Made by a program: the position numbers and the translations under genes. This document shows positions 8,538 to 13,781 of a stretch of DNA of 64,000 nt, piece after piece (within the stretch, counting starts at the first letter, position 1; each line of letters begins with the position of its first letter). This stretch comes from a bacterium (lineage in GTDB: Bacteria > Patescibacteriota > Patescibacteriia > JACPHY01): assembly GCA_030647005.1 (NCBI GenBank), contig JAUSKG010000021.1, forward strand, positions 27,105 through 91,104, in the 5' to 3' direction. The notes below the pieces were generated by a model. The model had not been told where the DNA came from, did no database searches, and worked only from the letters and a program-made list of their open reading frames with translations.

Positions 8538-8906
8538 ATGTCAGGACCCACCTCTATGGACCCATCCATGTTCCAGCACCTCTTCGCACTCATCGAGCGC
8601 ACGGGCGACCGGTTGGTTGTCGTAGACCCCGCATCGCGGAAGCCCTATGTGGTCATGGGGCTCGCGCAGTATGAGCAGCTCGTTTCCCCACCATCGCCGA
8701 AGCCGGCTTCGGCGTTCCTCGCGAGCCAGCAGAACTCCGCAAACGAGGATATCGCGGTGTGGCGGGCCATGCAGGAACCGGATGTCGTTGCGCCGGAGGA
8801 GGCGGTAGCGAGCATCCCGATTGGCATGATGGGTAGTTTTGTCCCGGAGCCACTCCAAGCGGCGATCCCGGACGATGACCGCTTCTACGTGGAACCCATC
8901 GAGTGA
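8538..8906 (+). CDS. hypothetical small protein between fusA and tuf; N-terminal part faintly Phd/YefM-antitoxin-like
   Basis: ORF in operon gap; no SD; LVVVDPASRKPYVVMGLAQYEQL pattern; weak call. Confidence 0.35.
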   Translation: MSGPTSMDPSMFQHLFALIERTGDRLVVVDPASRKPYVVMGLAQYEQLVSPPSPKPASAFLASQQNSANEDIAVWRAMQEPDVVAPEEAVASIPIGMMGSFVPEPLQAAIPDDDRFYVEPIE

Positions 8907-10298: not shown

Positions 10299-10366
10299 CA
10301 ACGCTGTTCCTCGGTGGGCGCGCAGCGCGCCCACCGCAGGGATGCACACGTACCTTCCTCCCACGC

Positions 10367-10729
10367 ATGCCGAAAGCAAAAGACAAGAAGCAAGCGGCCA
10401 CGACGGCGAGCCCCGAGCGAGAAGAAACATCGCGCATTCGCATCAAGATTCGTGCCTACGATCACAAGATCATTGACGAGTCGGCGAAGACGATCGTGGA
10501 GACCGCGAAGCGCTCCGGTGCGTTGGTGCGCGGGCCTGTGCCGCTGCCGACCGAGCGTCGTCGCTACACGGTGAACCGTTCGCCGTTCAAGCACAAGCGC
10601 GCGCGCGATCAGTACGAGATGCGTATCCACAAGCGCCTGCTCGATATCATGCAGCCAACCCCGAAGACCGTCGAGGCGCTGACGACACTCAACTTGCCGG
10701 CAGGTGTGAATATTGAGGTGAAGATGTAG
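10367..10729 (+). CDS. rpsJ: 30S ribosomal protein S10
   Basis: [40 protein letters not shown]... Confidence 0.95.
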
Positions 10730-10980
10730 GTGGGAGGAGTGAGTATTCGAGTGTGTGAGTATGCGAGTGGTAGGGAGGTACGCTCCCGACCGTTGGCACG
10801 CTCACATACCGAGTGATCGCGCACGACAGGAGATCGAAGGAAGGATTGAGTGGACCCCGTACGGGCACGCCGCTTGAAAACCGCTTCGATCCATACGTAC
10901 ACGTAGCGTTACCAACTTGCAACGGAGACAAAGACCACGAACAGCACCGCGGAGGAGTTCCCTGTTCGTGATGGAGTCGC

Positions 10981-11037
10981 GCGGGACGGATCCGGAGATA
11001 CTTCGGATCGGTCCCGCGGGCCTCCATCGCGTTTTTT
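10981..11037 (+). promoter_or_regulatory. Strong hairpin (13/14 bp) followed by T6 run in the rpsJ-rplC spacer; candidate attenuator/leader
   Basis: gcgggacggatccg-gagatactt-cggatcggtcccgc then gcctccatcgcgtttttt; an in-frame ATG with SD ggaggag lies at 10971. Confidence 0.4.
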
Positions 11038-11066
11038 CGTTCCACGAAGGCCCGTGGTCGGATCCT

Positions 11067-11684
11067 ATGCAGTTTCTCCTCGCACGAAAACTCGAGATGA
11101 CGCAGCGCTACGACGGTGATCGTTCGGTTCCCACCACGATCCTCGTCGTTTCGCCGTGCACCGTCACGCAGGTGCGGACGGAGAAGAAGGATGGGTACGC
11201 GGCGGTCCAAATCGCATCGGGGGTGCGTCGGCATGTGACGAAGGCGCTCCTCGGTCACTTTGGCGGACTGCACCATCGTACTGCGCGTGAGCTGCGGACG
11301 GTTGGTGTCCCTGATGTCAGCGTTGGCGATGTCATGGGTGTCTCCGTGTTCGCGCCGGGTGATCGGGTGAACGTCGTGGCAACGTCAAAGGGGAAGGGGT
11401 TTGCCGGCGTGGTGAAGCGCCATCATTTCCACGGACACAACGCGACGCATGGAACGAAGGACCAGGTCCGCATGCCGGGGTCAATCGGTGCGGGCGGTGT
11501 CCAGCACGTCTTCCGCGGGAAGCGCATGGCGGGCCGAATGGGTGGGGATCGGATCACGGTGAAGAACCTCGTCGTGGTGGCGGTGGATGCTGAGCGACAG
11601 ACGATCGAGCTCCGGGGCGCTGTGCCTGGCGCGCGCGGAGCACTCGTGGAAATTCGCCCCTACGCGGGGTATTGGAAGAGCTAA
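11067..11684 (+). CDS. rplC: 50S ribosomal protein L3 (start at MQFLL...; an upstream in-frame ATG at 10971 would add 32 aa)
   Basis: L3-like body incl. ...FAPGDRVNVVATSKGKGFAGVVKRHHF... Confidence 0.88.
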   Translation: MQFLLARKLEMTQRYDGDRSVPTTILVVSPCTVTQVRTEKKDGYAAVQIASGVRRHVTKALLGHFGGLHHRTARELRTVGVPDVSVGDVMGVSVFAPGDRVNVVATSKGKGFAGVVKRHHFHGHNATHGTKDQVRMPGSIGAGGVQHVFRGKRMAGRMGGDRITVKNLVVVAVDAERQTIELRGAVPGARGALVEIRPYAGYWKS

Positions 11685-11775
11685 CGCAAGACGTATGCGC
11701 GCGTGCGGATCGTGGGGCCGGAGGGCCGCCTGACGACCGGCATGCGCACAGACGGGAAGCGCGTACAGGAGAGAT

Positions 11776-12426
11776 ATGCTGCAAGCAGCGGTATACAACC
11801 AGGCGGGCGAGAAGACGGGGGCCATGGAACTCCCCCCGCAGGTGTTTGGCGTTGCGCCGAGCTCCGCAGTTCTCCACCAGGTCATCGTTGCCCAGGAAGC
11901 AAATGCGCGTCACGCGATTGCACACACGAAGACGCGCGGCGAGGTCTCTGGCGGCGGCAAGAAGCCGTGGAAGCAGAAGGGGACGGGTCGTGCGCGCGCG
12001 GGCTCCACGCGTTCGCCGCTCTGGGTAGGAGGCGGAACCACGTTCGGCCCACGATCCGTGCGAAACTTTGCGCTGCGCATCAATACGAAAATGCGACGCC
12101 AGGCCGTGCGCATGGCGCTCTCGGATAAGGTTTCTGCGGAGCGGTTTCTCATCGTGGAGGAGTTTACGCCCGTTGCGGGCAAGACGAAGGAAGCAGCAGC
12201 GATTCTTCACGCGCTCAGCGCAGTGGTACCAACGGAGCGTCGTGCTCCATCCGTTCTCGTCGTACTCGATCAGTCGCAGCGGGGTGCCGCGCGGAGCATG
12301 CGGAACCTCCCGCGTACGTCTGGCATTGATGCGGCGCACCTCAACACGCGAGACATCGTGAAGCACGATCTCATTGTGGCAACACGTGAGGCGGTTGCAA
12401 CGATGATCGAGCGACTCAACCCGTAG
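11776..12426 (+). CDS. rplD: 50S ribosomal protein L4
   Basis: GGGKKPWKQKGTGRARAGSTRSPLWVGGGTTFGP. Confidence 0.93.
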   Translation: MLQAAVYNQAGEKTGAMELPPQVFGVAPSSAVLHQVIVAQEANARHAIAHTKTRGEVSGGGKKPWKQKGTGRARAGSTRSPLWVGGGTTFGPRSVRNFALRINTKMRRQAVRMALSDKVSAERFLIVEEFTPVAGKTKEAAAILHALSAVVPTERRAPSVLVVLDQSQRGAARSMRNLPRTSGIDAAHLNTRDIVKHDLIVATREAVATMIERLNP

Positions 12427-13688: not shown

Positions 13689-13776
13689 GCTGCAAGCCGA
13701 CAGCTTCAAGCTCCAAGTCAGGAATGCGGTACGACGTCGTTCTGAACTTGCAGCTTGCAGCTGACCGCTGCAGCAC
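13689..13776 (+). repeat. Structured intergenic repeat copy 1 (CAAGC-repeat arm / loop / GCTTG-repeat arm) between rplB and rpsS
   Basis: gctgcaagccgacagcttcaagctccaag...acttgcagcttgcagctgaccgctgcagc; homologous to 16238-16326 and 17803-17895; ends 5 nt before rpsS ATG. Confidence 0.7.
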
Positions 13777-13781
13777 CCCCT

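Follow-up and report, generated by a model that had tools for sequence, protein, structure and literature searches.

Why do the genes for ribosomal proteins S10 (rpsJ) and L3 (rplC) stand so far apart in an operon whose other genes are closely packed, and what might the sequence between them do? We took up this question in a patescibacterial genome (GenBank assembly GCA_030647005.1, contig JAUSKG010000021.1, positions 27,105 to 91,104), in a stretch of 64,000 nucleotides (nt) that is called the window here; coordinates are those of the window, and features lie on its + strand unless stated otherwise. The rpsJ–rplC spacer (10730–11066, 337 nt), which a preliminary description of this DNA had called unusually long, far exceeds every other spacer of the S10 gene block and is strongly structured as a whole (fold z = −7.1 against dinucleotide shuffles). 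The same description gave 0–25 nt for the gaps elsewhere in the operon; this is roughly true, but the rplC–rplD, rplB–rpsS and tuf–rpsJ gaps measure 91, 93 and 68 nt. Our preferred answer, to which we give a probability of roughly 0.55, is that the spacer is an uncatalogued cis-acting ribosomal-protein (r-protein) leader, specific to the lineage of Uhrbacteria and related Patescibacteria, which would control rplC, rplD and the genes that follow by transcription attenuation.

Results

The best matches to the window's L3 protein, in one-genome-per-species and metagenome scans, came from Patescibacteria and were only 55–57% identical. Closer relatives were gathered via S10, as contigs that encode eight of the closest S10 proteins and reach rplC (84–92% identical; Candidatus Uhrbacteria); the window itself comes from a relative of this group. 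All eight have rpsJ–rplC spacers of 244–458 nt. Across the loci compared, which are designated by L numbers, the two genes are 26–58 nt apart in Actinobacteria, as against 190–520 nt in many Patescibacteria. The window and the eight relatives share one order of elements: a hairpin after the rpsJ stop, a conserved motif that we call M1, a variable linker that often holds another hairpin, and a long terminator-like hairpin with a U-run.

The last of these elements had already been singled out in the preliminary description, as a 14 base-pair (bp) hairpin at 10981–11017 followed by six T residues. Both are real, and the hairpin proved to be the core of a larger one of 65 nt and 28 bp (10967–11031), whose four stacked helices (minimum free energy −53.3 kcal/mol) abut the T6 run at 11032–11037, 29 nt before the rplC ATG. 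A G+C-rich hairpin directly before a U-run on the transcribed strand is the form of an intrinsic (Rho-independent) terminator, and transcripts would be released at this U-tract, with read-through subject to regulation. Runs of five or more T number 83 in the window, both strands counted; of these, this T6 has by far the most stable fold upstream of it (−53.4, the next being −33.0), and 70 nt windows of the genome average −21.3 (standard deviation 6.2, minimum −36.7); the combination of hairpin and T6 is exceptional for this genome and not a product of chance.

A hairpin plus U-run occupies the matching site in all eight close relatives, with compensatory changes. When the nine terminator hairpins were aligned with MAFFT, 89.9% of cells were standard pairs and 12 of 24 pairs had changed on both sides, giving a covariation score that none of 500 shuffles reached; moving the 3′ partners by one to three columns lowered the pairing to 30–50%. 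RNAalifold, applied unguided to whole leaders, also predicted the terminator de novo, as one of two modules of which M1 was the other, with compensatory changes in 29 of 47 pairs. The U-runs of the relatives (UUUUCGUU, GUUUUUGUUU, UCUUUUGUUU and similar) follow the general form UUUU(C/A)GUU. The stem sequence is conserved beyond the needs of pairing, and this excess suggests that the terminator hairpin may itself be part of a recognition site.

Motif M1 (10832–10891), recovered by RNAalifold, by models and by a descriptor, is a putative ligand-binding hairpin. Its outer helix, P1, pairs 10832–10840 with 10882 and 10884–10891, leaving G10883 bulged; P2, which encloses an inner hairpin, pairs 10847–10853 with 10870–10876; and between the two lies an internal loop with a 5′ strand AAGGAU (10841–10846) and a 3′ strand AAAAC (10877–10881). 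In the window's clade the motif takes the form P1 - G - (G/A)AAGGAU(C/U) - P2 - GAAAACC - (1–2 nt bulge) - P1′. Across nine leaders of this Uhrbacteria type, GGAAGGAU and GAAAACC are invariant, while both helices, P1 and P2, show covariation by RNAalifold on the MAFFT-aligned sequences, a pattern from which the asymmetric A-rich internal loop (AAGGAU/AAAAC) is likely to be a protein-binding site. The spacer thus holds covariation-supported RNA structure directly upstream of an r-protein operon and on the same strand, as an r-protein leader does.

At the same site other Patescibacteria carry a shorter hairpin, P1 - AAAGAUCC - loop - GGAAAACCUYC - P1′, followed by a terminator of the form GGCUAGAAG...CUUCUGGYUUUU. 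Carriers of this broad type include two metagenome-assembled genomes (MAGs) labelled Uhrbacteria (L006, L022) and one labelled Magasanikbacteria (L034). A covariance model, R1, seeded with 14 sequences of the broad family, the window included, matched 21 loci, always on the + strand and always between rpsJ and rplC or, on the contig without rpsJ (L134), just upstream of rplC; the window and about 0.87 Mb of related loci gave no match elsewhere. In the alignment of the R1 matches 81.5% was paired, compared with 58% in shuffles, and P1 and P2 covary. A descriptor covering both types (A[AG]GAU[CU], 6–75 nt, GAAAACC, and flanks forming P1 and P2), which was written after the sequences had been seen, gave 17 matches in 1.79 Mb on both strands, 16 of them in the rpsJ–rplC spacer and the seventeenth, in L134, just upstream of rplC; the window is matched at 10842–10882 (P2 4/4, P1 7/7). 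A hairpin plus U-run separates M1 from rplC in 23 of 25 M1 leaders. A second, wider model returned no new family members in 100 sources.

Five AT-rich members have a near-consensus sigma-70 promoter downstream of the rpsJ stop and upstream of M1. It is perfect in L082 (TTGACA-17-TATAAT, 12 of 12 positions) and scores 11 of 12 in L034, L021, L014 and L093. The end of the −10 box is 23–27 nt from M1 in four of the five leaders and 56 nt from it in L014. In these members, then, a transcript starts after rpsJ with rplC as its first gene, and the motif and the terminator belong to its 5′ leader. The AT-rich leaders of L082 (1930–1995) and L014 (2900–2985) also have a terminator whose 3′ arm doubles as the 5′ arm of a second hairpin with a U-run of its own, so that two mutually exclusive terminator-like hairpins stand in tandem.

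In GC-rich members the promoter's place is taken by a long hairpin, designated A. The window's copy (10739–10820) is near-perfect and has no U-run (folding free energy dG −51, z −6.3). Counterparts exist in all 15 other GC-rich leaders that were folded (z −2.6 to −9.8), the one in L171 being short; structure and position are conserved, with no sequence similarity among the leaders. A 3′-end stabiliser, a processing site and a U-less terminator are candidate roles.

The spacer is noncoding. The preliminary description had seen a Shine–Dalgarno-preceded ATG at 10971 whose frame reads through the hairpin into rplC, and had offered an N-terminal extension of L3 or a leader peptide as possible products. 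The ATG does exist, within the 5′ arm of the terminator, and no stop separates it from rplC in a frame that is open from 10878; its Shine–Dalgarno sequence is weak, since a start codon usually follows at 5–10 nt and the purine-rich GGAGGAG (10951–10957) ends 13 nt before this one. When the L3 N-termini of the relatives were compared, all eight began at the residue that aligns with the window's first methionine (11067). Upstream of this start, seven relatives have stop codons that close the frame 2–26 codons away, and in L164 the frame is open but contains no ATG, so that we reject both the extension and the leader peptide. The relatives' N-terminus, M[AP]F[IL][LM]..K, aligns with the window's MQFLLARK at residue 1, and the gene callers' starts fall on the same residue or, in one case, 12 nt downstream. 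Conservation of the AUG goes no further than its place as the AUGG half of a covarying AUGG/CCAU stem; L167 has GUG instead, and among the relatives the codon stands in different frames with respect to rplC. These stops and shifted frames also refute an L3 extension covering the peptide MESRGTDPEILR. Five open reading frames (ORFs) that lie within the spacer or reach across it, taken from both strands, gave no credible Pfam family. An open frame upstream of rplC, 63 codons long here, is unremarkable and expected by chance in DNA of 60% GC.

The same frame matters for annotation. ORF calling yields a 255-aa 'L3' (10917–11684) whose start lies within the leader, 50 codons ahead of the true one, and, antisense on the − strand (10689–11276), a 195-aa ORF that covers the leader and the beginning of rplC. 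Both appear to be by-products of the high G+C content and are traps for annotation; because the frame is open through the hairpin, ORF-based annotation can call L3 50 residues too long.

The segment between the U-tract and the rplC start (11038–11066, 29 nt) begins with the motif CGUUCCAC and contains a small hairpin (CCACG, 11042–11046, with CGUGG, 11053–11057) and no well-spaced Shine–Dalgarno sequence. As a candidate motif, CGUUCCAC or CGUUCCUC recurs just before rplC in L134, L136, L138 and L150, and near-variants stand there in L002/L092 and L081. The U-run is 8–35 nt from the ATG in the window, L171, L163 and L162; in L171 the ATG comes 8 nt past the hairpin, directly after UUUUCGUU. In L165 (1349–1452), L167 (2217–2388), L170 (1795–1915) and L166 (2103–2226) there are 100–170 nt of extra sequence between the terminator and rplC, rich in long palindromes of CGAATATGCGAATGGATGC-like units in L165 and L170, and these look like insertions of a palindromic repeat element.

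Long patescibacterial spacers without M1 were also seen. A hairpin plus U-run lies 9–53 nt before rplC in L001, L005, L011, L024, L051, L083, L085–L087 and L089, and L087 and L024 have a canonical terminator right after rpsJ followed by promoter-like sequence; in L062 and L079 the scan found a hairpin far from rplC or a weak one before it. Attenuation before rplC may therefore be widespread in the Patescibacteria radiation, with different sensor domains. Still longer rpsJ–rplC distances occur in L056 (691 nt), in L017, L027, L045, L067 and L076 (930–1030 nt) and in L004/L084 (1466 nt). The loci in this 0.7–1.5 kb range are labelled Campbellbacteria, Nomurabacteria, Kaiserbacteria and others, and have room for an inserted gene.

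The genes around the spacer follow one another on the + strand as rpsL, rpsG, fusA, a 122-aa ORF, tuf, rpsJ, rplC, rplD and more r-protein genes. The rpsJ gene (10367–10729) encodes an S10 of 120 aa; its best homologues, from Candidatus Uhrbacteria MAGs, are named 30S ribosomal protein S10, carry PF00338 and are 92% identical. An N-terminal extension of about 20 aa (10367–10430; P0004–P0027) is rich in Lys, Ala and Thr, and S10 ranges from 97 to 159 aa in the relatives, mostly through variation at the N-terminal end or differing start calls. The rplC gene (11067–11684), the first 3′ of the element, encodes an L3 of 205 aa that starts at ATG 11067 with the canonical N-terminus MQFLLARKLEMTQ and matches patescibacterial L3 from residue 1 in tblastn; the L3 genes of the relatives carry PF00297. 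L4 is encoded by rplD (11776–12426; PF00573). The 122-aa ORF between fusA and tuf (8538–8906) has no Pfam match, and an unannotated gene of 116–130 aa occupies the same place upstream of tuf in L162, L167 and L171, so that it looks like a conserved hypothetical protein within the str gene block.

Hairpins or inverted repeats are found in the three other long spacers as well. The tuf–rpsJ spacer (10299–10366) forms a strong G+C hairpin from GGTGGGCGCGCAGCGCGCCCACC and its flanks (dG −33.5, z −4.0), and no obvious Shine–Dalgarno sequence for rpsJ. The rplC–rplD spacer (11685–11775) is one long hairpin (dG −42, z −2.4); in the close relatives the gap measures 0–26 nt or the two genes overlap, which makes the hairpin peculiar to the window's genome. 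An inverted repeat, GCTGCAAGC ... GCTTGCAGC, marks the rplB–rpsS spacer (13689–13781). Together these spacers suggest that intercistronic hairpins are a habit of this operon. A dispersed repeat or mobile element was considered as the source of the rpsJ–rplC spacer and set aside, because no second copy of the spacer was found within the window; hairpin A likewise had no other copy there.

Discussion

The preliminary description had suggested an attenuator or an autoregulatory leader of L4/L3 type moved inside the operon. The comparative evidence favours this attenuator: the hairpin and U-run covary in all eight close relatives, the conserved M1 always lies 5′ of the terminator, and a promoter stands upstream of both in AT-rich relatives. 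The regulatory part of the suggestion is less firm, as no antiterminator was found; termination at the U-tract, its dependence on a ligand, the identity of that ligand and the means of read-through are inferred from comparison of sequences only. In the model that we propose, a ribosomal protein encoded downstream and present in excess over rRNA would bind the leader and raise termination at 11032–11037, so that L3, L4 and the proteins after them would be made in step with rRNA. L4, by precedent, and L3, as the product of the first gene, are guesses at the regulating protein. Since the element comes after rpsJ, that gene is outside its control, and S10 would escape the proposed regulation.

The arrangement resembles that of the S10-operon leader of Escherichia coli, in which a terminator lies about 30 nt before the start codon, as against 29 nt between the intrinsic terminator and the first regulated start here. 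In both, a long structured leader precedes the genes for L3, L4, L23, L2 and others, with variable 5′ hairpins, a conserved hairpin 5′ of the terminator hairpin, a further small hairpin near the start codon and no classical antiterminator. The E. coli leader is an L4-interacting RNA (Lindahl and Zengel; alignment in Fu et al. 2013, PMC3616713). Its variable 5′ hairpins are dispensable, its hairpin HD and terminator hairpin HE mediate termination that depends on L4 and NusA, which together stabilise a paused complex without a classical antiterminator, and its last hairpin overlaps the start codon (PMC3616713; PMC10931766). The two elements differ in position, the patescibacterial one lying after rpsJ and the E. 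coli one upstream of it; in stability, the patescibacterial terminator being far more stable; and in sequence and structure, where we found no similarity (the M1 model scored at most 4.5 bits, in a one-way search). An E. coli-type L4-interacting leader was therefore rejected on its position downstream of rpsJ and the absence, by the M1 model, of homologous HD, HE and HG helices. The E. coli RNA occurs in Gammaproteobacteria only (PMC3616713), and regulatory RNAs of the S10/L3/L4 block have been detailed only for that class, the L4 site being unconserved elsewhere (PMC3616713; PMC10931766).

Other catalogued leaders are no closer. No Rfam 15 family matches the spacer: at the gathering threshold the window gave only four tRNAs, and 18 related loci and the leaders of L136 and L082 gave nothing; at E ≤ 10 the only matches in this region of the window were chance hits to microRNA-like hairpins. 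The S10 r-leader of Firmicutes/Clostridia is likewise tied to the S10/L3/L4 gene block, and its internal loop, AG(A/G)UUGC ... GU(AAC), is superficially like A(A/G)GAU(C/U)...GAAAAC; there, however, AGA pairs with UUU, whereas the loop strands of M1 cannot pair. It lies upstream of rpsJ (Yao et al. 2007; Eckert and Weinberg 2020, PMC7247131, supplementary file 40), and its overlap with the Shine–Dalgarno sequence and AUG of rpsJ makes it a translational operator, unlike the element in the spacer. An nhmmer profile of 11 published examples (GAUGA...AGRUUGC-stem-GU..UUY...GGAG..AUG, overlapping the rpsJ start) matched none of the M1 sites, nor the sequence before the window's rpsJ, and the reciprocal search found nothing, in what was a sequence-only test on a small sample. 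The L4-Archaeoglobi r-leader (Eckert and Weinberg 2020) also stands directly before rpl3-rpl4-rpl23-rpl2, with S10 encoded elsewhere, but is archaeal, folds into a multi-stem junction, often lies inside a coding region and has no described terminator. Homology to it is unsupported, given the different fold; the negative Rfam result spans 4227 models, among which the inclusion of this motif was not checked. In Bacillus subtilis the infC-rpmI-rplT leader, of about 200 nt, directs L20-dependent transcription attenuation (PMC1865079) and shares with the spacer element the intrinsic terminator of an r-protein leader; the alternative terminator/antiterminator structures and the rRNA-mimicking L20 site of that leader differ from what we see, as neither was found here. 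The full-text literature that we searched reports neither an r-protein leader for Patescibacteria nor a bacterial leader upstream of rplC.

Several results weigh against regulated attenuation as we propose it, or against extending it to the whole family. A terminator of −53 kcal/mol before essential genes needs some mechanism of read-through, and no conserved antiterminator emerged: the best duplexes between the 5′ arm of the terminator and upstream sequence were no better than those of shuffles (z near 0) and were inconsistent in position. Between rpsJ and M1 nothing recognisable as a sigma-70-like promoter stands in the window or its closest relatives (best 5–7 of 12), so that the window's copy may be either a 5′ leader or an intercistronic element. 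The other spacers of the operon hold hairpins too, which makes hairpins as such common here. The M1 model found no match in the 16S and 23S rRNA of E. coli (best 8 bits), searches there with the strands of the motif yielded no convincing site, and with no such mimic there is no pointer to the ligand. Finally, a model built from 13 broad-type sequences, R3, did not match 10832–10891 with filters off (below 7.5 bits), nor did it match L162–L171. Shared loop strands, topology and context make homology of the Uhrbacteria-type and broad-type motifs probable, but since a model of the broad type only misses the window's clade, we take the Uhrbacteria type as a probable divergent variant rather than a proven member of the family. 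It is either such a variant, with GAAGGAU, a long P2 and a bulged P1, or a separate motif.

The 3′ strand of M1, ranked as a potential antiterminator, had a mean rank fraction of 0.26, which is not clearly better than chance (no null was computed). A possible alternative helix at 10936–10970 pairs CACGAACAG (10936–10944) with CUGUUCGUG (10962–10970) over 9 bp and overlaps the lowest 4 bp of the terminator. The pairing can also form in L163 and, with an A-U to G-C change, in L164, where a local hairpin competes with it; with three sequences in all, the helix is a lead as an antiterminator candidate. A faint likeness of M1 to H19–H20 of 23S rRNA (GAU-hairpin-A-rich) and to h27 of 16S rRNA was judged topologically different.

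The alternative that survives best, though we consider it unlikely, is a constitutive boundary. The hairpins and terminator would serve to finish or process the transcript of fusA, tuf and rpsJ, or to free a small stable RNA; M1 would contribute to stability or processing rather than sense a ligand, and rplC would be expressed by fixed partial read-through. The missing antiterminator, the lack of a visible promoter in the window's copy and the other intergenic hairpins of the operon all suit this explanation, as does the great strength of the terminator. It would not, however, need the invariant unpaired nucleotides that stand beside covarying stems in M1 and are typical of a binding site. Nor does it fit the five relatives with a promoter 5′ of M1, in which the terminator would end a transcript that has only just begun. 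S10 and L3 are needed in a 1:1 ratio, and a fixed terminator between their genes would unbalance the two. The 8–35 nt between U-run and ATG in the window, L171, L163 and L162 leave no room for a promoter downstream.

We regard as distinctly improbable an explanation in which M1 promotes read-through by recruiting a factor, either free S10 (NusE) with Nus partners or another factor that modifies RNA polymerase. Such antitermination would suit a conserved RNA that precedes a strong terminator and for which no RNA antiterminator could be detected; rpsJ lies immediately upstream, and the binding of S10–NusB to boxA RNA is established (PMC10931766). M1 is nevertheless unlike boxA, the nucleotides 5′ of GAAAAC forming a covarying stem rather than a conserved single strand. 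S10 is tied to the element by adjacency alone, and in the AT-rich relatives rpsJ belongs to a separate transcription unit. The more specific version, in which M1 would sense free S10, alone or in a Nus complex, and make read-through, and with it the production of L3, L4 and the other proteins of the operon, S10-dependent, appears just as improbable; the lack of an RNA antiterminator and the fixed place directly after rpsJ are compatible with it. If true, it would be an undescribed positive coupling between two r-protein transcription units.

Less probable again is a metabolite-sensing riboswitch, or another switch on the rplC operon that works without a trans-acting factor. The plan of a conserved structured domain followed by an intrinsic terminator would fit one, but M1 has the simple form of one hairpin with one internal loop and a P2 of variable length, and lacks the multi-stem junction or pseudoknot that typifies riboswitch aptamers; the element is associated only with r-protein genes, and no Rfam riboswitch matches it. 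A coding function, as an L3 extension from ATG 10971 or TTG 10917 or as a leader peptide through the hairpin, is scarcely credible, because the open frame and purine-rich tract of the window are set against closed frames in seven of eight relatives and L3 starts that align at or near 11067.

Regulation by r-protein leaders is itself well known; what is new in the attenuator proposed here is a first candidate in this radiation and a control point that has been moved. The Patescibacteria, or candidate phyla radiation (CPR), are a large and mostly uncultured group with small genomes and few known regulators. If real, the leader would shift the regulatory boundary of the S10 operon to a position after rpsJ, as in archaea, would add a compact RNA–protein recognition motif for study, and would give a first handle on how these bacteria balance their ribosomal proteins with rRNA.

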